IMG/VR virus record: IMGVR_UViG_3300027740_000003
Coordinates: 64,001 to 128,000 of that record
DNA: 64,000 bases
Origin: a virus
Taxonomy: Duplodnaviria; Caudoviricetes
Reading direction: 5' to 3' (one strand)
Made by a program: the position numbers and the translations under genes. Positions 31,455-63,947 of the stretch are shown here, piece by piece. How positions within the stretch are numbered: position 1 is the first letter of the stretch; every line of letters begins with the position of its first letter. Below the pieces are notes generated by a model. It searched no databases. It saw only the letters and a list, made by a program, of their open reading frames with translations, and had not been told where the DNA came from.

Positions 31455-33812
31455 TGCTCTTCACCTTACCTAATGAACTCTTTTTATTTCTCTAGAACCA
31501 GTTTATAACTCCATTGAAAATCAAGCTCCTCATTGTCCTCCCCAGGCCAATCAGGATCTCGATCCCACGCAACCATCACGGAAAGATTATTGTCCTCTAC
31601 AACAGCCACCCGGCCTTTTAAACAATAGTCCTTCCGATGCTGAACCCTATCGCCAACTTTAAAAGTTGTTGACTCTACAGATGAACCTAACATTATCACC
31701 TACTATCTGCCACTTGGCCATTTAGTCTTTTTTAACTGCCACAGCCCCACATTTTTTACAAATCCAATCCTTGTCAGAAGGATTGCCAACATCCGTGCAC
31801 CCTAGAGTCTCAATATAGTTCCCCTCTGAATCTATAACCTGATCCTCTTGTACACAACATGATACAATAAACAGCTTGTGCTCAGAACTGTTAGGACATA
31901 TTGTTTTCATTTTCACTCCGAATAATAACAGTCAAACCAAGGCCCGCTTCTCCTGGTCCGACGTTTTCCTTCTGCTTTTGTACACGTTCTCGAACTTGTC
32001 TCGGGATTCTTGCAATGACCTTGAGCCATTGCTAAAGTCTGGTTCCGAAACAAAATGTACGCTCTTCCACTGTTTTGGAATTTGCGCACAATTTTGTACG
32101 ACATTTTATTCCTCCCCTTCAAAAATGGCCCAGTTGTATCCTTCGGCTGGCATATACCAGATAAACAGGATCCCAAACATAAACACCAGTGCGGCTGGCG
32201 GCATCCACCACCACAAAGCCACAGCAACCATTCCCGCAATACTACTCAGAAGAATCGAATCCATATATCCCTTTCAAGATGGAGGATCATCAATTAACAT
32301 ATAATGATCTACATCACATGCCTCAGACCAAATACGCATTTCTAATTATGCTAAATGAGCTGAGTTTTTTTGTTAGCTACCTGGCGGGTTCTCAACCAAC
32401 ATGTAGTATTCTACATTTGGAACGATGAATCGAAGAGTCTTTTTCGGGCATGGCGGGCATGGAACCTCGATCTCATAAACGAAATAGAAACTATATTCGG
32501 AATCACCTAGATATGTTATTACAAGTCCAAAATAGATTTTCCCTCCAGAAGAAAATAGACACCTCTTCTCTGTTTCTCTATTCTTCTCTGTTTCTTCGGG
32601 AGGGTTATCTTCTACACTTTTCCATTGCATTTGTTTTATTCCTTCTTTACAAACTTCCATGAATCATTTCGTAAAATGAGCACATTCTACATCTTCATCT
32701 TCGTCTTCCCAAAAAGATATTTCACCAAGACTCCCCACGGAAAAATGATCCGCCTTCACTTTAACCAGATCATTCAGAGTATCTCCTTCCAACTTTACAA
32801 GAAATGTCTTCATATATCTTTTCTATTCTATTGTTTATATGCAAAAGGACACTTCTTGTGGCACCCTTCCCCACATTCACAATACCCTTCGGCAATGTCA
32901 ACACATTCCCAACCACTCTTCTCCGGAAATCCACACTGCCGGTGAGAACACATCCCGCTTTTCTCTCTTTCTCCACAAGCCATATTAGCCCTTCCTTGCC
33001 CCCTCACTGCCTCTCTGAGAGGCTTTTGCACCACCTAGGCCCCACTGGCCCAGCCAGACGAAAACCCCTCACAGCGGCTTCTGGAGCCGCTCCCGGAGCT
33101 GGTTCTCAAACAGCCGATGACATTTGGAAAGCCTGTTGTATTTGCCTATGTCTTTTCCGTGATATTCTTTGTATAGAGACATGTTCCCAAACTGGGAACA
33201 ATTTGTCTGATCAAGGTTGCTATTAGCATAGGTCTGGAAATGTGGACACTCCCGAGAACAATATTGCCCCCGGTCCCCACAGACAACTATGTCAACACTA
33301 TAGGTTAGTTTTATGTCTTCCATTTTAACTCATGATCTCGTCAATAAATGTACAGCTATAATAAGCATTGCTATACACCAAAATATAAACGCCACCGAGC
33401 CGCAATAATCATGCGAAAACAATGCTTGCCATTTGTATTGACGCTTCCTGTCGCCACTCTTTGCCAACTCCTCCGGACTTTCCAAAGGAACTACAGAAAT
33501 GTATCTTACCTTCTCTGGGTCAACAAGGTTGTTATTGGTATATGCGTCGGCAGCATCAAACGCCTCTTCCTCAGAGTCATATGGTCCTGCAACACTCTGA
33601 AAATCATCCGCCCCCGACCCGAAAAACACAATCACATGTTTAATGAATCCTGCCGATCCTCCTAAGGTTGGCTCTGCCATGTTCTTAACCTGTCCCGCCA
33701 TTTAACTGGCGCAAAAAAATTGGGGGCAACCGGTTTCCCTACGAAGCCCTCCACCACTTAACTAGATGCACCATTGCGCCTAGTAAAGTCTTTTTACCTA
33801 CATATAGGTTAG

Positions 33813-34149
33813 TGTAGGTGCCGGGAGTCGAACCCGGATCCGCGAACCAATGCAAGACACCATCATTCACAAGCTTAGGTTCATATCCTAGAACCAGGAT
33901 CCCACTCCCAGGGATTAGGTTTGCCCCTTATTGTCCTCGACCCGTTATATTGAGGCCCTTACGGGTTCAGTCCGTATGGTTTGCACCTTCCAAAATATCC
34001 AGACTTATCTCTTGGAAAATGTGACTTATGCCGCAGCAGCAGTCAGGTCTGCGTTATCGTTTGCAGTTGTTTACGACCCATTGATAAGTGGATAGGCGCC
34101 ACTTGCTTGCAGATGCCTCTTTCAGTCCCCGTCGAAACCAATCACCCAC
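33813..34149 (-). ncRNA. ssrA: tmRNA; tag peptide (A)ANDNADLTAAAA*
   Basis: Acceptor GTGGGTG/CACCTAC with G3-U70, 5' GGTTTCGACGGGG, T arm CCGGG-TTCGACT-CCCGG, resume codon GCA AAC GAT AAC... at 34064-34026 ending in TAA. Confidence 0.95.
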
Positions 34150-51431: not shown

Positions 51432-51716
51432 TTATTCTATCAGGTCTTTAATGATAGAGCAAGAAGGGCAGAGAATGGCCAAGAATTTTCTAAATGGCAT
51501 ATAGCCTGGGGAGATATAAAGGCAAGCTTTACCGAAGGTTAATTTTGCTGAGGTTGGGGAATTAATATCGCAGGTAGTTTTTCTATATTTACCATCTCCG
51601 ATATTAAGTTTAATGAGGACAGATTGACCAACAATGATGGGAGAATTACAGGAGGAGCATTTAAGTGGGAGAGAGTTCATTCTATGATATTTTTTATATT
51701 GTAGCAATCGGGGCAA
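51432..51716 (-). CDS. Split Zn-ribbon protein with IKDII tag
   Basis: CSSC...LCPSCSIIKDLIE*. Confidence 0.8.
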   Translation of the reverse strand: MPRLLQYKKYHRMNSLPLKCSSCNSPIIVGQSVLIKLNIGDGKYRKTTCDINSPTSAKLTFGKACLYISPGYMPFRKFLAILCPSCSIIKDLIE

Positions 51717-51967
51717 AGTAAGGGGAAGGCTCCAGATTTAGGGAGGTCAGATTCAATAAATATTTCGAACCAATAACCTTTCCATAGAATATAAGAATAC
51801 CACCAAGCTATACAGCTAGAAGATACAAATTTACAAGAGGAGCATTGGTACATTATTATATGTGTATTACAGGCAGAGCATTTATAATAAGATTGAGAAT
51901 CACAGGATTGAGCCTCAATGAAGATGAAGTGATGATCTTTCTTAGCATTATCTGGGAGGGGGATCAT
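51677..51967 (-). CDS. Cys-rich Zn-ribbon protein with IKDII tag
   Basis: CSAC, CSSC...LCPDCYNIKNIIE*. Confidence 0.8.
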   Translation of the reverse strand: MIPLPDNAKKDHHFIFIEAQSCDSQSYYKCSACNTHIIMYQCSSCKFVSSSCIAWWYSYILWKGYWFEIFIESDLPKSGAFPLLCPDCYNIKNIIE

Positions 51968-52015
51968 TGATTTGGTACCAAGGGAGAAAGCGTGGCAATA
52001 TATTAAAAATAATAA

Positions 52016-52231
52016 CTACGTTATTATATTTTTAATGTTAAAACAATCTTGACAGAGGAAGCTATTAAGAATAAAGTTTTTTGGATCAACTATTTCGTAG
52101 GGGCCGATGAATAATTTATTATTCATAAATTTAATTTTGACATAAGAAAATCTGAAAGAGAGGGTATCATGACAGAAGAAGGAATCATTATTCTTTATAG
52201 GGGAGAGGCAAGATGAGCAGAGATAATTCAT
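52016..52231 (-). CDS. Split Zn-ribbon protein with IKDII tag
   Basis: MNYLCSSC...LCQDCFNIKNIIT*. Confidence 0.8.
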   Translation of the reverse strand: MNYLCSSCLSPIKNNDSFFCHDTLSFRFSYVKIKFMNNKLFIGPYEIVDPKNFILNSFLCQDCFNIKNIIT

Positions 52232-52540
52232 TGAATGATATCTTTAATTATCAAGTTGGTTAAAATTTCATCTACGAAGTCTTTATAATCTGGGCAGAGG
52301 GCAATAATTAGTGGATGATATTTAGCCTGATATATTGCTAATTTTTGAAGTTCTTCTGATAGAAAAAGGGTCTTGTTTAACAGCTGCTAATTTTATTTCT
52401 TTTGAAGGATTGTGTATATATTGAATATTATATCCATCTTGTTTAACTGCTTTTAAACAATCAGATTCATTTTCCGGATCGAAGCCTAATGTTTTATTTA
52501 TTAATTGTTTTAATTGTTTTAATTGTTTAATATTATTCAT
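52228..52540 (-). pseudogene. Frameshifted 22-aa-repeat (DUF4116-like) protein with IKDII tag
   Basis: Frame 1 MNNIKQL...LGFDPENESDCL...QDPFSI; another frame continues SEELQKLAIYQAKYHPLIIALCPDYKDFVDEILTNLIIKDIIQ* (stop at 52228). Confidence 0.75.
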
Positions 52541-52942
52541 ATTATGATATCTCTAATCAAGCATTCGGAGCAGGAGAGCTGGGAAAGTTGATCGACAGTC
52601 TTCCAAGAGCAAGCTGGACAATAGTAATAGAAGCCATTAGGACTAAATTCTGAAGGATCATCGAAAACAAGGCACAAGACATTACAATTGGAGCATTTAT
52701 AAAGTGATATGTTTTGATATTCTTCAAACAGGAAGAAATCATGATCTTTGACAGCATTTTAAAGGTACAATAAGGCAGGCGTCGGGATATCCTTTTGTAG
52801 TACGGTCGTAAAAAAGGTTATTATTTTTATTTTTAATTTTTTGCCAACCACAAAATCTGGAATTTGGTGGTTTATATCTAAAGACGAAGAAGTAATTAGA
52901 AGATATAGGGGAGAGGCAAGAGGAGCAAGAGTAATTAATCAT
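52537..52942 (-). pseudogene. Fused/frameshifted pair of Zn-ribbon genes
   Basis: 52739-52942 starts MINYSCSSC but lacks the tag; an overlapping ATG-less frame reads NAVKDHDFFLFEE...YKCSNC...CPAC...LSCSECLIRDIII* (stop at 52537), similar to 51677-51967. Confidence 0.6.
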
Positions 52943-53169
52943 TGAATAATATCCTTAATTAGGTAGCAATCTGAGCAAAGGATGGTAGAGATTTCATATT
53001 TTTGGAAGGGGAGCAATATAAAAGAACCTGTATTTTGATAATAAAATTTTCCATTTTTAACACCTATTTTTTGCCAACCCTGGCAAAATTTATTACGGAT
53101 TAGGGAGTCATTTCTAAATATGTAGAAAATGTTAGGATTAATTTTTAAAAAGCAGGATGAGCAGATCAT
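52939..53169 (-). CDS. Split Zn-ribbon protein with IKDII tag
   Basis: MICSSC...LCSDCYLIKDIIQ*. Confidence 0.8.
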   Translation of the reverse strand: MICSSCFLKINPNIFYIFRNDSLIRNKFCQGWQKIGVKNGKFYYQNTGSFILLPFQKYEISTILCSDCYLIKDIIQ

Positions 53170-53537
53170 TGGATTATATCTTTAATCACCATTTCTGTTT
53201 TAGACAAGCATTTGAAATTGTTTAAACATTCTAACAGATTATATGTTAATCTGTATAATTCATTAAATTTAATTTCGTTTTGGACAAAAAAATGTTCATC
53301 ATGATGATAGTTTAAAAAGACAGAAATATTTTTATTAGAATGATAATAGAAAGTAATTCCAATTAAGCAATTTTCTGATTCGGAGAAGATAAATGGTTTG
53401 GAGAAGAAGGAGGAATCATTTTCAATGAAGTCATTTAGTGAGAGGGAGAATTCATAAGGTTCCAGGGCTAAATTTATCTGATGGATAATTTTTTGTATAC
53501 TAGAAGGTTTTGTTAAATTAGGTTTAAGATATTTCAT
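53166..53537 (-). CDS. Hypothetical protein with IKDII tag (non-Zn, non-repeat)
   Basis: Ends LSKTEMVIKDIIQ*. Confidence 0.75.
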   Translation of the reverse strand: MKYLKPNLTKPSSIQKIIHQINLALEPYEFSLSLNDFIENDSSFFSKPFIFSESENCLIGITFYYHSNKNISVFLNYHHDEHFFVQNEIKFNELYRLTYNLLECLNNFKCLSKTEMVIKDIIQ

Positions 53538-53728
53538 TGGATAATATCTTTAATCATGAGGCAATTAGGACATAGGAAGGTTCTATTTTCTAGAAGTTGT
53601 TTACAATGGGTGAATATTTTTGTCCAAGAAATATTAATTATCTCCTTTGAATAAACAGCAATAGAAACCCAATTATCGGCCAAATCAAGAGATATTTGAT
53701 CATGGCAAGAAGAGCAAGTTAAAATCAT
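53534..53728 (-). CDS. Split Zn-ribbon protein with IKDII tag; close paralog of 56400-56621
   Basis: MILTCSSC...LLENRTFLCPNCLMIKDIIQ*. Confidence 0.8.
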   Translation of the reverse strand: MILTCSSCHDQISLDLADNWVSIAVYSKEIINISWTKIFTHCKQLLENRTFLCPNCLMIKDIIQ

Positions 53729-53922
53729 TTAATTATATTTCTTATGACAAAGCATTCTGGGCACAAGAATTTAATATATGGTCGTGCAGAGTGGTTTTTA
53801 AAAGAAGCTGAATCGAAAAAGCTTTCTGTCATTTCAAAGAAACTAGAAGAGTAATGGTTATTACAAAAGAACCAGCTAGTATTTTTATTATTTTCTATTT
53901 TGTGGCAAGATGAGCAGATCAT
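53725..53922 (-). CDS. Split Zn-ribbon protein with IKDII tag
   Basis: MICSSC...LCPECFVIRNIIK*. Confidence 0.8.
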   Translation of the reverse strand: MICSSCHKIENNKNTSWFFCNNHYSSSFFEMTESFFDSASFKNHSARPYIKFLCPECFVIRNIIK

Positions 53923-54053
53923 TCTATTATGTCCTTAATTATGTAGCAATCTGGACAAAGAGCAACAACACTGTCAAAAATATCACTAGCTGCATGGAAT
54001 CTTTCATTGCCCAAATTGGATCTTTTGCATGAGTCGCATATTTCTTTTTTTAT
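53919..54053 (-). CDS. Unannotated 44-aa Zn-ribbon mini-protein with IKDII tag, ATA at the start position
   Basis: IKKEICDSCKRSNLGNERFHAASDIFDSVVALCPDCYIIKDIIE*; overlaps its neighbours by ATAA upstream and ATGA downstream. Confidence 0.6.
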   Translation of the reverse strand: MKKEICDSCKRSNLGNERFHAASDIFDSVVALCPDCYIIKDIIE

Positions 54054-54373
54054 TCTATTATATCTTTAATTATAAGATTGGTCATAATTTCATCTGCAAA
54101 GTCTTCATAATCCGGGCATAACATTATTACTTTAATATCATATTTAGATTGTTTTATTGCTAATTTTTGAAGTTCCTCTGAAGGGTTTTTAATATATCTA
54201 ATAGAATATGCATATTGTTTAACCGCTAATAATTGCATTTCTTCTGAGGGGTTCTTTATAAATTGAACAGACCATCCATTTTCTTTTACAGCTTTTAAAC
54301 ACTCTGATTCATTTTCCGGATCAAAACCCAAATTTTTAGCAATTAACTTATTTAATTGTTTTTTATTATTCAT
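54050..54373 (-). CDS. 22-aa helical-repeat (DUF4116-like) protein, 1 full repeat plus caps, IKDII tag
   Basis: LGFDPENESECLKAVK...KNPSEE...LCPDYEDFADEIMTNLIIKDIIE*. Confidence 0.8.
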   Translation of the reverse strand: MNNKKQLNKLIAKNLGFDPENESECLKAVKENGWSVQFIKNPSEEMQLLAVKQYAYSIRYIKNPSEELQKLAIKQSKYDIKVIMLCPDYEDFADEIMTNLIIKDIIE

Positions 54374-55689
54374 TCTATGATATCTTTAATAACGAGGTTG
54401 TCAAGGATTTGGGAGACAAAGTAATCAGGAAGGTTGCGCAAGTCAAGGGAGGAGATAAATTTAATATCGAATTTAGAATTATATATAGCCAATTGTTTAA
54501 TATCGGGTCCCGGGTTTTTTATAAATCTAATGCTTTTATAATTTATTTCTATGGCAATTTTCTGAATTTGTTTAGAAGGTTTGGAGATATATTTGATAAC
54601 ATCAGGATCTTGGGACACGGCTAATTTCTGAATTTGTTTAGAAGGTTTAGGAACACGTTTGATAAGATCAGAATCTTTGGATATAGCAATTTCCTGAACA
54701 AGTTCTGATGGGTTTTTAATATGAATTAAAGCATTTGGATTTGAATTAACGGCAATAATGTTTAAATCTTCTGTTTGGTCATTTAAATATTCTATAAACT
54801 CGCCGTCTTGTTTTAGCGCAAGTTTCCACAATTTTTTTGAAAGAGTTATATTTTCATTTGACAGTAAAGTTTCGATAGCGGCTGAATTTTCAGATTTCAC
54901 CACCATTTCTTTAATAATTTCGGAAGGATCATTAATATGATTAATAGCTTCTGGTTTAGATTTTACTGCGAGTTGTTTAAAACTTTCGGAAGGATTTTCT
55001 ATAAATTCAACAAGTTCTCCATTTTTAGAAAGAGCCAGGGTAATAATTTTATCAGAAGGATTTTTAATAAAAAAGATATTATATGGAAATTTTTTAACTG
55101 CCAGTTCTTGAATTTCCTTGGATGGATTTTTGATATATTGGAACATCTCTGGATTTAAAGAGATGGCATATTTTTGTAATTTTCTAGAAGGTTTTTTAAT
55201 AAATCTTATTGAATAAGGATCATTTTTAATTGCCAACATTTTTAATTTTTCAGATGGTTTTTTTATCTGTTGTATAGACAAGCCATCAGATGAAACCGCG
55301 ATAAGTTTTTGTTCTTCTGTTGGTTTTATAATATATGGCAATATATATAAAGGATCTATTTTCAGCATAGCATTGACAACATTTACTGATGGATTTTTAA
55401 TTACATGATAATTGTATGATTTTAAAATATTATTATTTATTGCATAAATTTGTGCTTTTTCTGCAAATCTATTCAATAGTGCATTCAGTTGTGTAGGTGT
55501 GTCTGAAAACGCTCTTGCTTCTTCGACGTGTTTTAAATATTCTATTTGTAATCTTATTGAAGGATTTTTGATATATTTTATATTATTTATATCGTCCTGC
55601 AAGTGTATATTGGTTAGATTATCTATCCACTGAATTGAATTTGGGTTATGTTTTAGAGCAATGGTTTGTAATTTTTCTAGAGGTTTCAT
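54370..55689 (-). CDS. 22-aa helical-repeat (DUF4116-like) protein, about 14 repeats, IKDII tag
   Basis: Repeats of type KNPSxExQxLAVxxxxxxIxYI; ends ILDNLVIKDIIE*. Confidence 0.85.
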   Translation of the reverse strand: MKPLEKLQTIALKHNPNSIQWIDNLTNIHLQDDINNIKYIKNPSIRLQIEYLKHVEEARAFSDTPTQLNALLNRFAEKAQIYAINNNILKSYNYHVIKNPSVNVVNAMLKIDPLYILPYIIKPTEEQKLIAVSSDGLSIQQIKKPSEKLKMLAIKNDPYSIRFIKKPSRKLQKYAISLNPEMFQYIKNPSKEIQELAVKKFPYNIFFIKNPSDKIITLALSKNGELVEFIENPSESFKQLAVKSKPEAINHINDPSEIIKEMVVKSENSAAIETLLSNENITLSKKLWKLALKQDGEFIEYLNDQTEDLNIIAVNSNPNALIHIKNPSELVQEIAISKDSDLIKRVPKPSKQIQKLAVSQDPDVIKYISKPSKQIQKIAIEINYKSIRFIKNPGPDIKQLAIYNSKFDIKFISSLDLRNLPDYFVSQILDNLVIKDIIE

Positions 55690-55760
55690 GAAATATGAGC
55701 AAGGAAACCCCCAGCCTTGTGCCAGAGGTTATTGACTGTATTATGTTTCTTATAGAAAAT

Positions 55761-55979
55761 TTACTCTATAATATCTTTAATAATGAAACAATCATGGCAC
55801 ATAATTGAGAAACTGTCTTCTCCGCCGCATTCTTGGATACAGGCTTGGATAGGGATATCACATTTAGAATATTGAGATAGTTTAGATTGTAGGGAAAGCA
55901 AAGAGGCCCAACCGTCCTGGGATTCATAGCGCCAAGACAATTCATTATTATATTCGGCATTACAGGACAAGCATTTCAT
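55761..55979 (-). CDS. Split Zn-ribbon protein with IKDII tag
   Basis: MKCLSC...MCHDCFIIKDIIE*. Confidence 0.8.
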   Translation of the reverse strand: MKCLSCNAEYNNELSWRYESQDGWASLLSLQSKLSQYSKCDIPIQACIQECGGEDSFSIMCHDCFIIKDIIE

Positions 55980-56167
55980 TCAACATCTTTTATATTATGG
56001 CAAGAAGGGCACATTAAAGGGATAGAATCAAGAATACGTGGAAGTGCGGTAGGGGAGACCCAAGGGATAAGAGGTTTAAGGGAAGATATTCTAATCCATT
56101 CAGATTTGAAAAAAGCAAACCATTTTTTATCCAGAGGCGATTCAGAGTTGCAGAATTTACATTTCAT
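55976..56167 (-). CDS. Split Zn-ribbon protein with variant tag
   Basis: MKCKFC...MCPSCHNIKDVE*. Confidence 0.75.
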   Translation of the reverse strand: MKCKFCNSESPLDKKWFAFFKSEWIRISSLKPLIPWVSPTALPRILDSIPLMCPSCHNIKDVE

Positions 56168-56403
56168 TCAATTATGTCTTTTAAATGCCAGCAATCTTGG
56201 CAAAGAATGGTAGAAAGTTGATATTTATTGAATAAATTTTTAGTATTTTTGTTATGAATATTAACATAATTAAAGCTGGTTTGATATATTTCATTATCAT
56301 TTAATTCAAAAAAGCAATATATTTTACCTCCAGGGGCTCCACAATCTGCATAAAAAGATTTAAGATTTTGGGCAAAACAGGAAGAGCAGATATAATTAAT
56401 CAT
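56164..56403 (-). CDS. Split Zn-ribbon protein with IKDII tag
   Basis: MINYICSSC...LCQDCWHLKDIIE*. Confidence 0.8.
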   Translation of the reverse strand: MINYICSSCFAQNLKSFYADCGAPGGKIYCFFELNDNEIYQTSFNYVNIHNKNTKNLFNKYQLSTILCQDCWHLKDIIE

Positions 56404-56621
56404 TGTATTATATCTTTAATTATTAAACATTTGGGACAAAGGATGGTTCTGTTTTCTAGCAAAGCTTTATAATTTTCAAATGTTAATGTATAAAGAATAT
56501 CGATTAATTGAACCTCTGTTTCGAAACGAGAAAGAGACACCCATCCTTCTGCCAATGACACCCATTCTTCTACCAATTCAGCAGATATCCTATCACGACA
56601 AGAAGAGCAAGTTAAAATCAT
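56400..56621 (-). CDS. Split Zn-ribbon protein with IKDII tag
   Basis: MILTCSSC...LLENRTILCPKCLIIKDIIQ*. Confidence 0.8.
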   Translation of the reverse strand: MILTCSSCRDRISAELVEEWVSLAEGWVSLSRFETEVQLIDILYTLTFENYKALLENRTILCPKCLIIKDIIQ

Positions 56622-57283
56622 TCAATAATATCTTTTATAATTAAATTGTTATATATTTCTTCAGCAAAATCTTTTGCAAAATCTTTATAGTCGGGACATA
56701 ATAATATTATGTTTATATCATATCCAGACTGTTCTATTGCAGCTTTTTGAACTTCCTTACAAGGATTTTTTATATATTCAATAGAAGGCGGATTTTGTTT
56801 AACTGCTTCTAATTGTAATTTTTCTGAAGGATTTTTTATATATTCAATAGAAAATGCATTTTGTTTAATAGCTTCTAATTGCACTTCCTTAGAAGGATTT
56901 TTTATATATTCAATAGAAAATGCATTTTGTTTAACTGCTTCTAATTTTACTTTCTTACAAGGATTTTTTATATATCGAATAGAATGCCCAAATTCTTTTA
57001 CAGCTTCTAATTGAACCTCTTCGGAAGGATCTTTTATATATTGAATAGAATTTCCGCTTTGTTTAACTGCTTCTAATTTTACTTCCTTAGAAGGTTTTTT
57101 TATATGCATAATTGAATGCCCATCTTGTTTAACAGCTTCTAATTGAACTTCTTTAGAAGGGTTATTTATATGTCGAATATTAAATCCTTTTTGTTTAACC
57201 GTTTTTAAACAATCAGATTCATTTTTTGGATCAAATCCCAAATGTTTATCAATTAATTTATTTAATTCTTTTTCATAGTTCAT
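56618..57283 (-). CDS. 22-aa helical-repeat (DUF4116-like) protein, 6 full repeats plus caps, IKDII tag
   Basis: LGFDPKNESDCLK...(NPSKEVQLEAVKQ)n...LCPDYKDFAKDFAEEIYNNLIIKDIIE*. Confidence 0.85.
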   Translation of the reverse strand: MNYEKELNKLIDKHLGFDPKNESDCLKTVKQKGFNIRHINNPSKEVQLEAVKQDGHSIMHIKKPSKEVKLEAVKQSGNSIQYIKDPSEEVQLEAVKEFGHSIRYIKNPCKKVKLEAVKQNAFSIEYIKNPSKEVQLEAIKQNAFSIEYIKNPSEKLQLEAVKQNPPSIEYIKNPCKEVQKAAIEQSGYDINIILLCPDYKDFAKDFAEEIYNNLIIKDIIE

Positions 57284-57492
57284 TGAATGATATCCTTAAT
57301 CATTTTACAAGTTTCGCACATAAAACTATTACTATTTGTTTTAAATAGTATTGTACTTATAGTTTCTCCCAAATTTGTATCATAGTGTTTTAATTTAATA
57401 TGATATTCCTGTTCGGCAGGAGAAATTATTATATACCACTCTTTATTATAGAAAACAAATTTTTTACAAGAGGAACAGATCATTTCCACCAC
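57280..57492 (-). CDS. Split Zn-ribbon protein with IKDII tag
   Basis: MVEMICSSC...MCETCKMIKDIIQ*. Confidence 0.8.
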   Translation of the reverse strand: MVEMICSSCKKFVFYNKEWYIIISPAEQEYHIKLKHYDTNLGETISTILFKTNSNSFMCETCKMIKDIIQ

Positions 57493-57743
57493 ATATAATC
57501 ACAATCAGCCCAACGAATTTCATAATGATATTTAGACCAGAATAAACCTTTAAAAGGTTTTGACACTTGAAACCCTACATCTTCCAACTTAAGAATTACT
57601 TTTTTACTCAATGTTGGAACATTAATATAACTCATTGATTGATATGCCGCCTTTCTGCATTTTTTCGAAATAATTCTGTATTCTTCCATTTCTTCTTTAT
57701 TTAAACGCCTCATTAGTTCTAAACACTCTTTTTGTTCAGGCAT
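57480..57743 (-). CDS. Hypothetical protein (no tag)
   Basis: 87-aa ORF linking the radical SAM to the tagged array by overlaps. Confidence 0.6.
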   Translation of the reverse strand: MPEQKECLELMRRLNKEEMEEYRIISKKCRKAAYQSMSYINVPTLSKKVILKLEDVGFQVSKPFKGLFWSKYHYEIRWADCDYMWWK

Positions 57744-58566
57744 TATATAATTCCTTTGTTGAAAATGAACTAGGATATACTTTCATTGTTTCTAAATCTA
57801 GGTATTTGCTTAGAATTTCGGGTTCATACATAGATACATTAAATCTTCCATCTTGCAAATATGGATAGAAGTTGGCTCCAAAAGCGATATCAGCTGGAGA
57901 ACCGACAATAGATTGTTTTAGATATTCCCAATCTATTTGTGCTTCTTTACATCTCCCCTGGGCAGAAAGAGGCAGAAGTACAAAGTATTTAATTCTATCA
58001 TGATATTCTTTGTATATAGAAGAAAATGTATCTATAGATGATTTGTCAGATATGATACAATGTAGGTTAGTGAAGATATTTTCTGCCAAGAAGGCTTCTG
58101 TGGCAGATCTCCAGAATTGTTCTAGATGAGGATGGGTTGATACAGCAACTCCTCCACAAAGCTCTTTGGTAGCCTTGAGAAGGGTTTCTGAGATATGCAT
58201 TCCGTTGGTTGTGTAGTTAGGGGTGATTCCTAGGCTCAGGCTGGCTTCTAAGACCTTTATGAAGTCAGGATGGGAAGTAGGCTCGCCTCCTCCAAAAGCG
58301 ATTTGAAAAGGCTTCTGGTTTTGAGAAAGAGGGGAGAAGAATTTGAGGAATTTATCCACAATATTTCTATCATGGGATTTAGGAACAGAAGACTGATAGC
58401 AGTAGGAGCATTTCCCCATACAATGCGAAGTAATTTTCACATCATAGAACTCTGGATATTCCAACTCATTAATCTCTTCATTTGGATTTAAGGCAAAGCG
58501 GAGGGTAGTTCCGTCTGACAGGTGAAAAGCTTTGTAATTAGATTCTGGGAATATTCTAATTTTCAT
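57736..58566 (-). CDS. Radical SAM enzyme
   Basis: CMGKCSYC, AFGGGEP, YTTNG. Confidence 0.9.
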   Translation of the reverse strand: MKIRIFPESNYKAFHLSDGTTLRFALNPNEEINELEYPEFYDVKITSHCMGKCSYCYQSSVPKSHDRNIVDKFLKFFSPLSQNQKPFQIAFGGGEPTSHPDFIKVLEASLSLGITPNYTTNGMHISETLLKATKELCGGVAVSTHPHLEQFWRSATEAFLAENIFTNLHCIISDKSSIDTFSSIYKEYHDRIKYFVLLPLSAQGRCKEAQIDWEYLKQSIVGSPADIAFGANFYPYLQDGRFNVSMYEPEILSKYLDLETMKVYPSSFSTKELYNA

Positions 58567-58607
58567 TCTAATATATCCTTATTTTTGATGGAGGATAGTT
58601 GTATACA

Positions 58608-59063
58608 TTAACATCTGTGTTCTACAGCTTCGGTAGAGTACAGGAATTTAATTGCCAGTTTGGCTAATTTTTTGTATTTTGGATCTTTTACAGTTATTTC
58701 CAATTCCGTATCACCTTCATAATATTCTTTAATTTCTTCCAACCAGCCCGGCGCTTCTATTTTGCCAGACTCAACATCTTCCAAAAGTTTAGAAATTTTA
58801 TCCTCGTCGGGGTCTCCATTGGGAGAAAGGTAAGTGTCATCCATACCATTATAAATGGCATCTACAGCCATATCCCAAACCAAATCTGTATTGCTAACAA
58901 TTTTTACATTAAAAATTTCATCGCAAGTATTTCCCGTTCCCATCAAAGTAAGCATTTCGTTAATTAGGGCTTTAAATGGTTTGATGGAACCCTCTGATTT
59001 AGTGTATATAGTAGTAGAAGAGTTTGTGATTAAACTTGTTATGGAATGTAGTTTGATTTTCAT
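58608..59063 (-). CDS. 'SITSxITNSST' family protein, copy 4
   Basis: MKIKLHSITSLITNSSTTIYT...KYKKLAKLAIKFLYST. Confidence 0.8.
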   Translation of the reverse strand: MKIKLHSITSLITNSSTTIYTKSEGSIKPFKALINEMLTLMGTGNTCDEIFNVKIVSNTDLVWDMAVDAIYNGMDDTYLSPNGDPDEDKISKLLEDVESGKIEAPGWLEEIKEYYEGDTELEITVKDPKYKKLAKLAIKFLYSTEAVEHRC

Positions 59064-59075
59064 TGTATTTTCTTT

Positions 59076-59501
59076 TTAGCTGTAGGTGGCTTCTTGATAG
59101 GTTGAATATAGAAACTCTTGCATTTGTTTTGCAAGTTTTTTATATTTTTCATCTTTTGGAATGATATGAAGATAGGTAGACGGAGCCTCATCTGCCGTAC
59201 CTTTTTCTATTTTTTTAAACCAGGTGGGCTTATCAATTTCTCCAGCTAACACAGAATCATAAAGCTTCCTTACATCTTCTTCAGTTAATTTTTTTGGAGC
59301 GGATTTGTAATACTCTTCTGGATATTCCGACAAAACTACCGTTTTAAACACATCGTCAAATTTGTATGGTAGGTTAAATGTTTCAAATATTTCATTTACC
59401 AAATTTCTTGCAGATTCTTCAGAATTTTCTGAATAAGTAAATATGGTAGTTGAAGAATTGGTTATTATTGAGGTTATTGAGTGTAGTTTCATATTATCCA
59501 T
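59076..59501 (-). CDS. 'SITSxITNSST' family protein, copy 3
   Basis: MKLHSITSIITNSSTTIFT...KYKKLAKQMQEFLYST. Confidence 0.8.
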   Translation of the reverse strand: MDNMKLHSITSIITNSSTTIFTYSENSEESARNLVNEIFETFNLPYKFDDVFKTVVLSEYPEEYYKSAPKKLTEEDVRKLYDSVLAGEIDKPTWFKKIEKGTADEAPSTYLHIIPKDEKYKKLAKQMQEFLYSTYQEATYS

Positions 59502-59946
59502 CCCTGAATGCTTCGTGAGAGGTTGAGTACAAGAACTTTTTAATCAGATTTGCCATATTAGCATATTCTGGCTTCTTTGGAACAAGATAAAGTGTTGTTG
59601 GATACGAATATCCATTCTCAGAATTTTCTGATTTGGCTTCAGCTTCTTCGAACCAAGTAGGTTTAGGCAAAATTCCCGCCATAACATCTTCATACAAAGA
59701 TCCTATATCAGAATTTTCATCAATTCCTTCCACCGTATTATTCTCCAAGTATTCATAATACAAATGTGAATCTCTGAAAAGAAGAACTGTAGTGAAGAAA
59801 TCATCAAAAGTTTTCCCTTCTACTCCAAGTGTTTTCAAAATTTCATTTATCATATTCTTAGCAGCTTCTCCAGAGGCATCAGAATAAGTATATATAACCG
59901 TTGAGCTATTTGTTATTATTGAGGTTATTGAATGTAGTTTTATCAT
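59494..59946 (-). CDS. 'SITSxITNSST' family protein, copy 2
   Basis: MIKLHSITSIITNSSTVIYT...EYANMANLIKKFLYST. Confidence 0.8.
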   Translation of the reverse strand: MIKLHSITSIITNSSTVIYTYSDASGEAAKNMINEILKTLGVEGKTFDDFFTTVLLFRDSHLYYEYLENNTVEGIDENSDIGSLYEDVMAGILPKPTWFEEAEAKSENSENGYSYPTTLYLVPKKPEYANMANLIKKFLYSTSHEAFRDG

Positions 59947-60380
59947 CAGTTTTCTCCTTCCTCATAAGAGGCAGAATATAGAAACAATTCTATTGTTTCG
60001 GCCAGCTTATCATATTTTGGGTCTTTTGTAGAAATGAACAAATTAGTTGATCCGGAGTCGTTTTGTTCGACATAATTAAACCATGTAGGTTTTGGCGTTT
60101 TTCCTGTTTTTACATCGTAGTATAATTTATCAAAATTAGTATTTTCATCAACTCCTTCTATAGGATGATAGCCCGCATAATCAGAATATCTCCAAGAGGA
60201 ACTGCTTAATAGAACCACTTGAAAAACATCATCGAATTTTAAAGGAATATTAAACGAGACAAACAGTTCTTCCACCATTTTTCTAAAAGCCTCCTCACAG
60301 TTTTCTGATTTGGTATAAATGGTAGTTGAGCTGTTGGTAATTAATGATGTTATCGAATGCACTGGTATTTCAATTAACAT
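59946..60380 (-). CDS. 'SITSxITNSST' family protein, copy 1
   Basis: PVHSITSLITNSSTTIYT...KYDKLAETIELFLYSA. Confidence 0.8.
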   Translation of the reverse strand: MLIEIPVHSITSLITNSSTTIYTKSENCEEAFRKMVEELFVSFNIPLKFDDVFQVVLLSSSSWRYSDYAGYHPIEGVDENTNFDKLYYDVKTGKTPKPTWFNYVEQNDSGSTNLFISTKDPKYDKLAETIELFLYSASYEEGEN

Positions 60381-60400
60381 GCGTGGCCTCCAATCTGTCC

Positions 60401-60464
60401 AACGTAATCATCCGGCCCAGGGATGTCAAGTAGAGTTGACACACCGCAGGAAAGTGAGTATGTT
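60401..60464. promoter_or_regulatory. Back-to-back divergent promoters
   Basis: Minus: TTGACA(60429-60424)-N17-TACGTT. Plus: TTGACA(60436-60441)-N17-TATGTT. Located exactly at the strand switch. Confidence 0.75.
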
Positions 60465-60496
60465 CATGGACATGGAGAACATCCAGGAGCAATAAA

Positions 60497-60745
60497 ATGA
60501 ATAAAGTATATGTTGTAATAAAAGATGAAGTTGTAGAGAAGGTTGAATTTGAAAGAAGTGTAGCTCTAGAGCTGGCAAAACAGTTAGCGGGCGTAGAGGC
60601 AGGCATTTCTTTAGCGGACGTCTCAGTATGGGAGGCAGAAGCGGGCGGAAAGCCAACCATGATCTATAGTGTGTCATGGGAGGCAACCGGACCGTTGGAA
60701 CCCCTGATATTCGTTGGAAGCCCAAGCATATCTCCTCAATCATAA
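60497..60745 (+). CDS. Hypothetical protein, first gene of the rightward operon
   Basis: AGGAG SD, ATG at 60497. Confidence 0.65.
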   Translation: MNKVYVVIKDEVVEKVEFERSVALELAKQLAGVEAGISLADVSVWEAEAGGKPTMIYSVSWEATGPLEPLIFVGSPSISPQS

Positions 60746-60753
60746 AGAATAAA

Positions 60754-61089
60754 ATGAAACATATTTTTAATTTTTTAATTTGGTTTATGCAAAACAGCCC
60801 AGATACAAGTGAATTTATTAAGAAAAAACGATTAGTACAAAAATCTATAATAAAACTAATACGAACAGACGGTTCTCTTATTGAAGATATTGAAAATTTA
60901 GAGTTGCAATTAATAGCGGTTAAACAAAACATATATTCTATTCAATATATAAAAGATCCTTCCGAAGAAGCGCAATTAGAAGCAGTTAAAAATTATCCGC
61001 CCATATTAGATTATATAGAAGATTTTATAAATGGTAAAATTTGTGAAAAAATAAAAGACATGTTGGTTATAAAGGATTTAATTCAATAA
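60754..61089 (+). CDS. Short 22-aa-repeat protein with IKDII tag
   Basis: LQLIAVKQNIYSIQYIKDPSEEAQLEAVKN; ends MLVIKDLIQ*; likely start MKHIF at 60754. Confidence 0.75.
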   Translation: MKHIFNFLIWFMQNSPDTSEFIKKKRLVQKSIIKLIRTDGSLIEDIENLELQLIAVKQNIYSIQYIKDPSEEAQLEAVKNYPPILDYIEDFINGKICEKIKDMLVIKDLIQ

Positions 61090-61150
61090 AGAACTTCAGT
61101 TATTAACAAAGAGGCATGATCAAAATCAGGATTAGTAATGGGTCTAATTC

Positions 61151-61834
61151 TTGCTGTGTTATGGGGCCATTGCTATAAAGCGGTTGACAGAAGGCCTGGC
61201 GAAGGTTAGGTTTGAGGGCATGATGGATTTGGAAAATAATACAGGAAGTCGCTTGTTTTTGACAAGCGATCTTCATTTTGACCATACGAACATAATTAAA
61301 TATTGCGACAGGCCTTTTCCAACTGTTAAAGACATGAATGGCGCACTAATAAACAATTGGAACAGAGTGGTTGGCTCAAGTGATATCGTCTGGGTTCTCG
61401 GAGATTTTTCTTTATCTAAAGATACGATATTTATTTCTAGAACTTTGGAAAATCTTAATGGACAAAAGAATCTTATTATTGGAAACCATGATAGTAAAGT
61501 GTGCACTAATTCTCAACACTGGAATTCTGTTCATGAACTACATAACATCTGTGTAGGCAAACAAACGTTAGTGATGTGTCATTATGCTATGAAGGTATGG
61601 TATCGAAGTCATCATGGGTCGTGGCTAACGTTTGGTCATTCTCACGGTAGCTTGCCAGAAGATAATTCGTTATCTTTCGATATTGGTGTTGATGTTTGGA
61701 ATTATACCCCTGTGTCATTTGAGCAGATAAAAAGAAAAATAGAAGATAAAAAGAATGCTATTTTAGTTGGAGAAAAAGGAAATGTAAATATTAGAAACAT
61801 TAATCAGAATAATAATAAGAAGTATTGGATATGA
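61151..61834 (+). CDS. Calcineurin-like metallophosphoesterase
   Basis: SDLHFDH, LGD, GNHD, CHY, GHSH motifs. Confidence 0.88.
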   Translation: MLCYGAIAIKRLTEGLAKVRFEGMMDLENNTGSRLFLTSDLHFDHTNIIKYCDRPFPTVKDMNGALINNWNRVVGSSDIVWVLGDFSLSKDTIFISRTLENLNGQKNLIIGNHDSKVCTNSQHWNSVHELHNICVGKQTLVMCHYAMKVWYRSHHGSWLTFGHSHGSLPEDNSLSFDIGVDVWNYTPVSFEQIKRKIEDKKNAILVGEKGNVNIRNINQNNNKKYWI

Positions 61835-62041
61835 CTAAAGGTATATGTTGTTCGTCTTGTGGTAAAATTTCAAATGATTATCATGGGATGGGCAAGAACC
61901 AACATCTGGGACAAATCAATAATTTATTCACTTGATATGGAATATTATCGAAATATTCCTGAACCATTTGAAGATTATGGATATCGTGAATGTGATTTCT
62001 TTTGTCCAGATTGTATTATTATTAGAGACATAATAAAATAA
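61831..62041 (+). pseudogene. Frameshifted split Zn-ribbon gene with IKDII tag
   Basis: ATG at 61831 (ATGA overlap) gives MTKGICCSSCGKISNDYH...stop; the adjacent frame continues GWARTNIW...FFCPDCIIIRDIIK*. Confidence 0.65.
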
Positions 62042-62114
62042 AGCTCGCGTTGTTGAAATAAAGAAAACTGCCAAAAAAAGTCGAGAAACAACAAAGCTCA
62101 TAGAAACAGTTTCT

Positions 62115-62561
62115 ATGAGTCATAAATGGCAACTGAATGGTATTAAGTTTAATTTTTGTGTAAAATGTGGGTGTAAAAAAACTTACGCTGGTAGATGGCA
62201 CCGATGCATGTCCAAAACAGCTTATGGAAAGAAACTTCAACACAAGTTAGAAATAATTATAGATGGTCGTCTAACTTGGATGCCAGCATATTGCAAATGT
62301 AAAGTATGTCAACTAGAAGAAAACTCTAGACATTCAAATATTATGTGGTCAACAGACGATACTGGAATAGCATATGTTCCATATAAACTAATTAAAAATA
62401 ATAATGGAACTACGTTGGGAAAACATTGTAAATGGTGGAATTGGCAACAAGATCCTGTTAGTAAAGAGTGGGGTAAAGTTCCTATTCCCGGATTGGCTTT
62501 CTGGCCGGTCTTCTGCCTCTTGACAGAAGACGAGGCAATGATTAAAGATCTCATCCTATGA
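62115..62561 (+). CDS. Cys/His/Trp-rich protein with IKDII tag
   Basis: CVKCGC, CKCKVC; ends LTEDEAMIKDLIL*. Confidence 0.75.
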   Translation: MSHKWQLNGIKFNFCVKCGCKKTYAGRWHRCMSKTAYGKKLQHKLEIIIDGRLTWMPAYCKCKVCQLEENSRHSNIMWSTDDTGIAYVPYKLIKNNNGTTLGKHCKWWNWQQDPVSKEWGKVPIPGLAFWPVFCLLTEDEAMIKDLIL

Positions 62562-62875
62562 AACCATACACGGATCGCGAAGAAGCAAAAACTAATTTGT
62601 TGTATCAGTTTATAAATGATAATGAAACAATTAAACCAATGAAAAGTTTTATTTGTTGTCTTGGAAGTGAATATGATAATTTTGACTTTGATTTATATGA
62701 TATGGCACACGAATTAGTAAAAGAAGGAAAACTTGTTTCAGTTAAAATTTATATTCCAGATTCATATCAATTAAATGAAACTCGTGGAGAAAAAGATTTA
62801 ATAGAATGGATTCTTCCTCCCGGTTCTAAAGTCTTATCCGAGGATGAATTAATAATTAGAGATATAATTGAATAA
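62558..62875 (+). CDS. Hypothetical protein with IKDII tag
   Basis: Ends LSEDELIIRDIIE*. Confidence 0.75.
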   Translation: MKPYTDREEAKTNLLYQFINDNETIKPMKSFICCLGSEYDNFDFDLYDMAHELVKEGKLVSVKIYIPDSYQLNETRGEKDLIEWILPPGSKVLSEDELIIRDIIE

Positions 62876-62886
62876 TAAGGACATTA

Positions 62887-63153
62887 ATGAAAAACAAAAC
62901 CAATGCATTTGATTCCTTGGAAAAGTTAATTGACAAATGGAAAAGGGATAACAAACTAGAATCAACGGAAGATATTTCTAAAGTTGTAGAAAGTCTTTTG
63001 GTATATTCTGTTGTTTTAGTTGCAAGATCTAACAATGATGATTTTGAGATTGAGGGAGATGTATCTGGCGGACCAAACGAAGATACGTACCGATTTAATT
63101 TTACTGTAAAAAAAGAAGAAAAAAGAATTCCTGAGCCACAAGATATCAATTAA
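62887..63153 (+). CDS. Hypothetical protein (no tag)
   Basis: 88-aa ORF in the rightward operon. Confidence 0.6.
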   Translation: MKNKTNAFDSLEKLIDKWKRDNKLESTEDISKVVESLLVYSVVLVARSNNDDFEIEGDVSGGPNEDTYRFNFTVKKEEKRIPEPQDIN

Positions 63154-63155
63154 TA

Positions 63156-63947
63156 ATGTCTAAATCAAAAGAAAAACAACTAAAAAAATTAATTGTGGAG
63201 AAATTGGGTTTTGATCCAGAAGATGAATCTAATTATTTAGAAGCATGTAAAAAACATGGATTTCGTATTAGGTTTATAAAGAACCCTTCTAAAGAAGTAC
63301 AATTAGAAGCAGTTAAACAAAATGGAAATTCTATTCAATATATAAATAACCCTTCTAAAGAAATAAAACTAGCAGCTGTTAAAGAAAATGCATATTCTAT
63401 TCAATATATAAAGAACCCTTCTAAAGAAGTTCAATTAGAAGCTGTTAAAGAAAATGGAAATTCTATTCAATATATAAAGAACCCTTCTAAAGAAATAAAA
63501 TTAGAAGCAGTTAAACAAAACGGAGGATCTATATGTTATATAAAAAATCCTACTAAAGAAATTAAATTAGCATCAGTTAAACAACATGGAAATAATATTA
63601 GATATATAGAATGTCCTTCAGAAGAACTTCAGATAGAAGCAGTTAAACAAAACGGATTTTATATTGAACATATAAATTGTCCTTCAGAAAAAATACAGAC
63701 GGAAGCTGTTAAACAAAATGCATTTTCTATTGAATATATAAAAAATCCTTCAGAAGAAGTACAATTAGCAGCTGTTAAACAAGATCCATCTTCTATTCGA
63801 TTGATAAAGAACCCTTCAGAAGAAATTCAAAAGGCTGCAATAGAAGCTTCTGGATATGATGTAAAAATAATAATATTATGTTCTGATCGAGGAAAATTTG
63901 CAGAAGAAATATATAATAATTTAATTATCAAGGATATTATTGAATGA
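63156..63947 (+). CDS. 22-aa helical-repeat (DUF4116-like) protein, 8 full repeats plus caps, IKDII tag
   Basis: LGFDPEDESNYLEACK...(KNPSKEVQLEAVKQNGNSIQYI)n...FAEEIYNNLIIKDIIE*. Confidence 0.85.
   Translation: MSKSKEKQLKKLIVEKLGFDPEDESNYLEACKKHGFRIRFIKNPSKEVQLEAVKQNGNSIQYINNPSKEIKLAAVKENAYSIQYIKNPSKEVQLEAVKENGNSIQYIKNPSKEIKLEAVKQNGGSICYIKNPTKEIKLASVKQHGNNIRYIECPSEELQIEAVKQNGFYIEHINCPSEKIQTEAVKQNAFSIEYIKNPSEEVQLAAVKQDPSSIRLIKNPSEEIQKAAIEASGYDVKIIILCSDRGKFAEEIYNNLIIKDIIE

Follow-up and report, generated by a model that had tools for sequence, protein, structure and literature searches.

The stretch of DNA analysed here (the window, 64,000 nucleotides) comprises bases 64001-128000 of the IMG/VR virus record IMGVR_UViG_3300027740_000003, a 435,004-bp jumbo phage record which is rated complete by CheckV and has tRNA genes and a transfer-messenger RNA (tmRNA) aboard. 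Our subject is an array of minus-strand genes within the window in which a divergent intergenic region (ending at about 60380) is followed by four closely packed paralogous genes for small proteins, a gene for a radical S-adenosylmethionine (SAM) enzyme and an 87-amino acid (aa) open reading frame (ORF). Downstream of these lies a run of genes for Zn-ribbon and DUF4116-repeat proteins ending in IKDIIE-like tags. The four paralogs and the enzyme had been proposed as five minus-strand genes in a sequence-only reading of the window, and all five were recovered, as follows.

59946-60380, minus strand: paralog 1 (P0001), 144 aa; ORF and alignment, family profile E 2e-52
60324-60359, minus strand: HSITSLITNSST, within the N-terminal module of paralog 1; motif coordinates checked
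59494-59946, minus strand: paralog 2 (P0003), 150 aa; ORF and alignment, family profile E 8e-59; C-terminus ...FLYSTSHEAFRDG, last residue Gly
59899-59934, minus strand: HSITSIITNSST, within the module of paralog 2
59076-59501, minus strand: paralog 3 (P0005), 141 aa from the first ATG, with a 138-aa form in the database; profile E 5e-53
59448-59483, minus strand: HSITSIITNSST, within the module of paralog 3
58608-59063, minus strand: paralog 4 (P0004), 151 aa; ORF and alignment, profile E 5e-50
59013-59048, minus strand: HSITSLITNSST, within the module of paralog 4
57736-58566, minus strand: radical SAM enzyme, 276 aa; PF04055 E 5.6e-10

Small proteins with a shared N-terminal module and their linkage to a radical SAM gene

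The four paralogs are 38-46% identical in pairwise comparisons and share 31 invariant alignment columns, including HSITS.ITNSST, G93, P98 and W100 of a G...KP.W motif, Y123, A127 and FLYS at positions 133-136, which bears out the motifs previously described as common to all four. Given their E-values of 5e-50 to 8e-59 against the family profile, this likeness is not due to chance. Paralog 4 is the most divergent and has its own ortholog, P0026, in relatives of the phage. Profile searches recovered 608 relatives, all of them unnamed and of metagenomic or viral origin, and many neighbours of the radical SAM gene fitted the family profile over their first ~40 residues only. The sole part common to the whole superfamily is an N-terminal module of ~45 aa, consisting of a β-strand, the pair [H/Q]S, a β-hairpin with ITNSS at its tip and then a helix, and described by the pattern [H/Q]S-x-x-D-x-ITNSS-[TS]-x-φ-[FY]. 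Among 200 unique module proteins the first position is H in 68% and Q in 27%, S follows in 97%, D in 92% and the I and T of ITNSS in 92% and 98% respectively, while N, S and S are each present in 100%; the residues after ITNSS conform to [T/S]-[E/V/T]-φ-[F/Y]. Module proteins are 50-320 aa long and differ in their C-terminal parts. A profile of the module alone matched 2,778 clusters at 50% identity, drawn from 1.84 billion representatives, and in all of the best 150 of these clusters the module starts within the first 29 residues.

A C-terminal Gly is present on 53% of the 200 unique module proteins (LG in 51, DG in 29, NG in 10), with tails kept within subfamilies such as ...FLYSTxHEATRDG and ...DNSIPYx13RYHLG; such tails may point to a further site of processing or modification. 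Paralog 2 is the only one of the window paralogs to end in Gly (...AFRDG).

Neither the paralogs nor ten long members matched anything significantly in Pfam, PHROGs, NCBIfam or PADLOC, and the best E-value in a profile search of the Protein Data Bank (PDB) was 0.17. Modelled by AlphaFold from 43 homologs, a paralog forms an α/β sandwich with a predicted local distance difference test score (pLDDT) of 82 and a predicted template modelling score (pTM) of 0.74. The best Foldseek match of the small proteins in the PDB was to nucleoside diphosphate kinases (E 0.46, template modelling (TM) score ~0.2) and the best wide VIA-align match to generic α/β sandwiches (Z 5.4), both of which are weak and do not imply a new fold; a search of the ESM Atlas by shape and features returned viral hypothetical clusters only. 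A flavodoxin-like phosphate loop was considered and set aside, as no flavodoxin fold was among the matches. The small proteins fall in no described family. Within the paralog model, residues 10-23, the most conserved stretch of the protein, have a pLDDT below 50 as against more than 90 elsewhere; a second low-scoring part is the C-terminal tail (137-144), and residues 10-23 are the sole internal one. A hairpin of such low confidence in the monomer resembles a segment that becomes ordered only on binding.

Thirty viral loci found through the small protein, together with exact-protein look-ups, gave a set of 31 non-redundant small-protein loci. An orthologous radical SAM gene on the same strand is present in 29 of the 31 (E 1e-74 to 1e-120), usually directly downstream; exceptions to the linkage are one locus with the enzyme encoded elsewhere in the same complete genome and two fragments that are 22% and 60% complete. 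[quoted passage not shown] When the ORFs of the small-protein loci were clustered, the small proteins (87 members, 31 loci) and the enzyme (29 loci) stood out, the next family being present in 6 loci.

Species-representative genomes of bacteria and archaea (185,579 species) yielded matches to the generic radical SAM core only and no orthologous enzyme, and the 80 best matches to the enzyme profile among them, used as a negative control, had no module protein nearby. The best prokaryotic match, at 36% identity over residues 1-176, comes from a metagenome-assembled Vampirovibrio genome, on a contig of 8 kb. Among the deposited phages of INPHARED there was no match to the paralogs and the only match to the enzyme was a protein of Vibrio phage D479 with 30% identity; DNA-level matches of the window in that collection were confined to DUF4116 repeats. 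The enzyme and the small proteins form a phage-only two-component module that is widespread in large uncultured phages. The sequence-only reading had mentioned a link between TNSS-motif proteins and radical SAM genes in phages and bacteria alike, of which the phage half holds to the point of being near-obligate; the bacterial half found no counterpart among the species representatives. No paper describing the module was found in the literature.

The radical SAM enzyme and its predicted complex with a paralog

The assignment of the enzyme, originally made from a CxxxCxxC motif encoded after the paralogs, is upheld by a match to PF04055 of 40.1 bits against a gathering cut-off of 29.5. Residues C49, C53 and C56 (CMGKCSYC at nucleotides 58399-58422) provide one [4Fe-4S] site and are invariant across 26 orthologs, as are G92 and G94 of the SAM motif GGGEP (residues 92-96), in which G93, E95 and P96 are nearly so. 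These orthologs (alignment A3) are 46-63% identical with 55 invariant residues, a much higher level of conservation than that of the small proteins. The AlphaFold2 model (pLDDT 91.6) comprises six β/α units in a partial triosephosphate isomerase (TIM) barrel and an N-terminal three-stranded sheet (residues 2-25) that is specific to the family. Apart from the three motif cysteines, the 26 orthologs have none that could serve auxiliary clusters and none at the C-terminus; the only extra conserved cysteine is C137, present in 24 of the 26 and replaced by Ser in L016 and L026, which adjoins residues 138-141 of the interface predicted below. At 90% identity and E ≤ 1e-5 the enzyme has 2,238 clusters, an upper bound which may include generic radical SAM enzymes.

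Foldseek returned 148 PDB matches for the enzyme model at E ≤ 1e-3, and the best 50 listed are all radical SAM enzymes. The nearest solved folds are SuiB (E 2e-12, TM score 0.66-0.70), SkfB (E 1e-10) and EpeE (E 2.5e-7), with further matches to viperin-like enzymes (E ~1e-7), the pyruvate formate-lyase activating enzyme PFL-AE (E 2.5e-6 over 180 columns) and the anaerobic sulfatase-maturating enzyme anSME (E ~3e-6). Family models fell far below their cut-offs: NCBIfam models of RiPP maturases reached at best 25-39 bits against cut-offs of 265-650 and covered residues ~36-172 only, the viperin model NF038283 reached 43.3 bits against 180, with PADLOC pVip models matching residues 44-144 only, and NrdG2 reached 19.1 bits against 131. 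Source annotations of family members read 'organic radical activating enzyme'. A radical SAM enzyme of thymidine hypermodification (PMC8989533) was rejected as a candidate, there being no linked kinase or transferase and no close homolog of our enzyme in INPHARED.

At four loci (L011, L013, L087 and L119) the ortholog matches the enzyme only from about residue 56 onward, and at two of these a separate upstream ORF also matches it with E ~1e-20 (L011:8296-10561 and L013:10931-12346). The gene is apparently split just past the CxxxCxxC motif, with a gap of 150-900 bp. A group I intron was considered as the cause and rejected, Rfam finding no group I or group II intron in L011, L013 or L087.

We predicted the complex of the enzyme with a paralog from the alignments of both chains, left unpaired, together with a 4Fe-4S cluster and SAM. 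The predicted complex scored 0.81 as against 0.02 for the best of three controls. In calibration, 58 of 80 solved complexes attained the former mark, as did 2 of 110 mismatched pairs, although these counts are approximate here given author-made alignments and the inclusion of small molecules. Runs agreed in at least 91% of contacts, with a pLDDT of at least 81 for the partner. The predicted interface comprises residues 6-27, the helix 31-42 and residues 134-139 (the FLYS tail) of the paralog, and on the enzyme the N-terminal sheet (12-28) together with invariant residues at the top of the barrel. The latter fall at 88-92 (GGE), 115-119 (PNYTT), 138-141, 165-169, 193-198, 222-234, 242-253 and 266-268, stretches which by sequence are the GGE region, PNYTT, GGVA, NLH, YFVLL, AFGANF, YEPE and SSF. 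The Ser/Thr/Asn-rich segment is thereby placed on the active-site face of the enzyme in the model, which fits the earlier suggestion that it might be a substrate for modification by the radical SAM enzyme.

The pairs of lowest predicted error (enzyme:module) are 24:8, 23:9, 22:10 and 21:11, an antiparallel ladder whose register would place enzyme residue 20 opposite module residue 12. Of 71 orthologs of the enzyme, 67 have a residue at position 20, which is K in 61 of them and R in 2, and T20 is found only in the window lineage, i.e. the window and its syntenic relative L122. Module position 12, which is D in 92% overall, is S in all seven module proteins of this same lineage. The clade of paralog 4 in the tree is separate from that of paralogs 1-3 and the nearest outside members of both keep D12, so the change from D to S either occurred on at least two occasions or was spread by gene conversion, in a single genome lineage and alongside the change in the enzyme. 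Since the alignments were unpaired, covariation of K20 and D12 did not inform the prediction, and the double change of K20 to T with D12 to S fits the predicted register and supports it without proving it.

Ten related loci of the IMG/VR sample 3300045988 group (L099-L118) have Q for H in the module (QS..D), and their enzymes have Leu for Gly at window position 19, beside the docking strand; this is a possible second co-variation, in a single clade.

Neighbouring features of the locus

The features that flank the five genes are as follows.

60401-60429, minus strand: promoter-like element TTGACA-17 nt-TACGTT; read from the sequence, below the threshold of a consensus scan
60387-60391, minus strand: GGAGG ribosome-binding site, 6 nt (60381-60386) before the ATG of paralog 1
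57480-57743, minus strand: 87-aa ORF; 8-nt overlap with the radical SAM gene at its stop codon

A leftward promoter ahead of the paralogs had been claimed, and a putative promoter at 60401-60429 is plausible. Its -35 box is perfect and it sits in the divergent intergenic region; its -10 box has 3 of 6 matches and was missed by the consensus scan. The 87-aa ORF has a homolog only in the close relative L122 (85 aa, L122:5364-5621) and none in the other loci, and it is probably outside the core module. An ORF of 83-87 aa overlaps or abuts the stop codon of the radical SAM gene in the window, in L122 and in UFOVP276 (L001:9798-10049), with sequence likeness detectable between the window and L122 only.

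None of the four paralogs carries an IKDIIE-type tag, and tagged genes follow downstream (57280-57492, 56618-57283 and further on), as had been observed previously. IKDIIE-like tags, borne by Zn-ribbon and DUF4116-repeat proteins, number 17 in the window (51432-63947), 18 in L122 (98-11117) and four in all other loci fetched (~1.5 Mb, prokaryotic controls included). L122 also has a tagged DUF4116 gene inserted between the paralog array and the radical SAM gene. With 35 of 39 tags in the window or L122, the tag system is a feature of this phage lineage that lies beside the module and is not coupled to it. The proposal that the paralogs form a hub for the tag does not agree with this distribution, the phage loci among those ~1.5 Mb having the module and the whole of them only four tags.

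Elsewhere in the window, a tRNA/tmRNA island occupies 14650-42190 on the minus strand. Of its eight tRNAs, three are for Leu, one each for Pro, Arg, Tyr and Lys, and one has an odd anticodon loop; the tmRNA, at 33812-34149, encodes the tag ANDNADLTAAAA. Between 24000 and 52000 the G+C content is 0.42-0.52 as against 0.29-0.39 on the flanks, and there are few long ORFs. Stop-codon recoding was rejected for this ORF-poor 24-52 kb region, as reading TAG, TGA or TAA as sense opens no long frames.

The small proteins as probable substrates or possible subunits of the enzyme

The gene linkage, the pattern of conservation and the predicted geometry together make it very likely that the module proteins are direct partners of the radical SAM enzyme. 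Beyond this, our preferred reading, to which we assign a probability of about 0.6, is that the pair constitutes a self-contained, phage-specific module in which the enzyme docks the N-terminal hairpin of the small proteins and modifies it. The N-terminal β-sheet of the enzyme would dock the module by antiparallel strand pairing, with enzyme residues 20-25 against residues 7-12 of the small protein, and docking would put the ITNSS hairpin on the face of the barrel that holds SAM and the cluster. The 5'-deoxyadenosyl radical would then abstract a hydrogen from a residue of TNSS or one adjoining it, leading to a post-translational change. As the enzyme has one cluster only and no auxiliary clusters, the most economical guess would be a redox-neutral outcome, e.g. 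an epimerisation, a rearrangement, or the formation of a protein-borne radical or adduct. The four paralogs of the window may then represent old, separately maintained substrates of one enzyme.

Such a reading has its closest models among the RiPP radical SAM maturases, including SuiB/SuiA, SkfB/SkfA and PqqE/PqqD/PqqA. There too a radical SAM gene lies beside the gene of its ribosomally made substrate, or beside several such genes, the substrates have a conserved N-terminal part for recognition and a β-strand is added to the small sheet at the N-terminus of the enzyme, in the manner of RiPP recognition element (RRE) domains and as predicted here; SuiB and SkfB are also the best structural matches of the phage enzyme. 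Unlike these maturases, the phage enzyme lacks the auxiliary-cluster cysteines of SPASM/twitch domains and the winged-helix part of the RRE, its partners are proteins of 50-320 aa with a confidently folded domain and not short peptides, what is predicted to enter the active site is the conserved part and not a variable core, and the module is found in phages only. Radical SAM peptide epimerases (EpeE/YydG and PoyD) resemble the phage enzyme in that redox-neutral abstraction and return of hydrogen suits an enzyme without auxiliary clusters; EpeE is a structural match, and the proteusin precursors of PoyD have a large conserved N-terminal domain, the folded NHLP leader. However, the candidate hydrogen donor C137 is not invariant in the phage family, and EpeE has an additional cluster. 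A further structural match, anSME, acts on a serine within a conserved motif of a protein of full size, but the phage motif does not conform to (C/S)xPxR and the oxidation by anSME requires two auxiliary clusters that are absent here.

Several considerations weigh against modification of the hairpin. The gene linkage, the conservation and the restriction to phages are observed, while the binding and its register are predicted and the role as substrates and the chemistry inferred; the predicted interface fits a tightly bound lid or subunit as well as it does a substrate. The enzyme is without the auxiliary clusters and full RRE domain of similar RiPP maturases, and an epimerase mechanism with a Cys donor is weakened by the two orthologs, out of 26, that have Ser in place of C137. 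For radical SAM peptide chemistry it is unusual that the targets are in part folded, their pLDDT exceeding 90 outside the hairpin, and the covariation of K20 and D12 is essentially one lineage event, though one that recurs across paralogs.

The main alternative, which we consider unlikely but a serious competitor, is that the small proteins are accessory or specificity subunits capping the barrel of the enzyme, whose invariant D/T/N/S/S side chains would complete its active site or serve to bind the substrate, be it a small molecule or a nucleic acid, e.g. through a nucleotide phosphate, so that different paralogs would lend one enzyme different specificities. The linkage and the predicted interface apply equally to such subunits, a polar Ser/Thr/Asn loop is suited to ligand binding, viperin-like nucleotide-modifying enzymes are among the structural neighbours, and five consecutive absolutely conserved residues exceed the needs of one site of hydrogen abstraction. 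On the other hand, divergent paralogs that number one to six for each enzyme and are unrelated in their C-terminal parts resemble payloads more than they do lids, no nucleotide- or DNA-metabolism gene is consistently linked across the 31 loci, and the monomer model leaves the hairpin disordered, as would be expected of an inserted substrate loop. A role as substrates is probably the better of the two readings, because there are several divergent paralogs per enzyme, the module is disordered alone and the nearest folds are peptide-modifying radical SAM enzymes.

We regard it as highly improbable that the enzyme is an activase of the glycyl-radical type with the small proteins as its radical cofactors, in the way that GrcA (YfiD) serves with PFL-AE. 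The glycine loop of PFL enters the barrel of its activase (PDB entry 3CB8), and PFL-AE with PFL or GrcA is likewise a small, single-cluster radical SAM enzyme whose target loop lies at the end of a β-finger in a folded protein, and GrcA itself is a standalone substrate of ~127 aa. The hairpin tip predicted to enter the barrel mirrors this glycine loop, and the structural match to PFL-AE and the source annotations point in the same direction. The shared module, however, has no conserved glycine or glycine radical motif among the 200 proteins, which means that this is not a classical glycyl-radical system, and a radical on Ser, Thr or Asn would be without the stabilisation of a glycyl radical. 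In addition, the neighbourhood encodes no glycyl-radical enzyme as a partner, activase models fall well short of their cut-offs (19 bits for NrdG2 against 131) and the fold match is weaker than those to the RiPP maturases. Least probable of all is that the paralogs are independent phage proteins (small enzymes or anti-defence proteins with an active site of HS, D and TNSS) that are merely co-transcribed, or a docking hub for the IKDIIE tag, since, despite one tightly packed operon with tagged genes and the capacity in principle of H, S and D to make a catalytic centre, an orthologous radical SAM gene is near-obligate, on the same strand and adjacent in more than 100 diverse phage contigs with nothing else conserved, H is replaced by Q in 27% of members and the tags are largely confined to one lineage.

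Radical SAM enzymes acting on proteins have been a source of new chemistry, including glycyl radicals, formylglycine, thioether and ether cross-links and D-amino acids. Radical SAM enzymes with ribosomally made partners are a kind already known, and what is notable in the phage pair is its size, its restriction to phages and the use of full proteins as partners. Modification of the universal N-terminal ITNSS hairpin module would make this a new class of radical SAM-installed modification on folded phage proteins, a tentative proposal that we hold with less confidence than docking and modification as such. The partner motif, the docking register and the natural compensatory pair offer concrete residues for mutation. 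If the proposal is true, a residue in the ITNSS hairpin would be converted to a new protein-derived functional group, activating varied small effectors during infection, and the assignment of this role would cover thousands of 'hypothetical' genes of jumbo phages.

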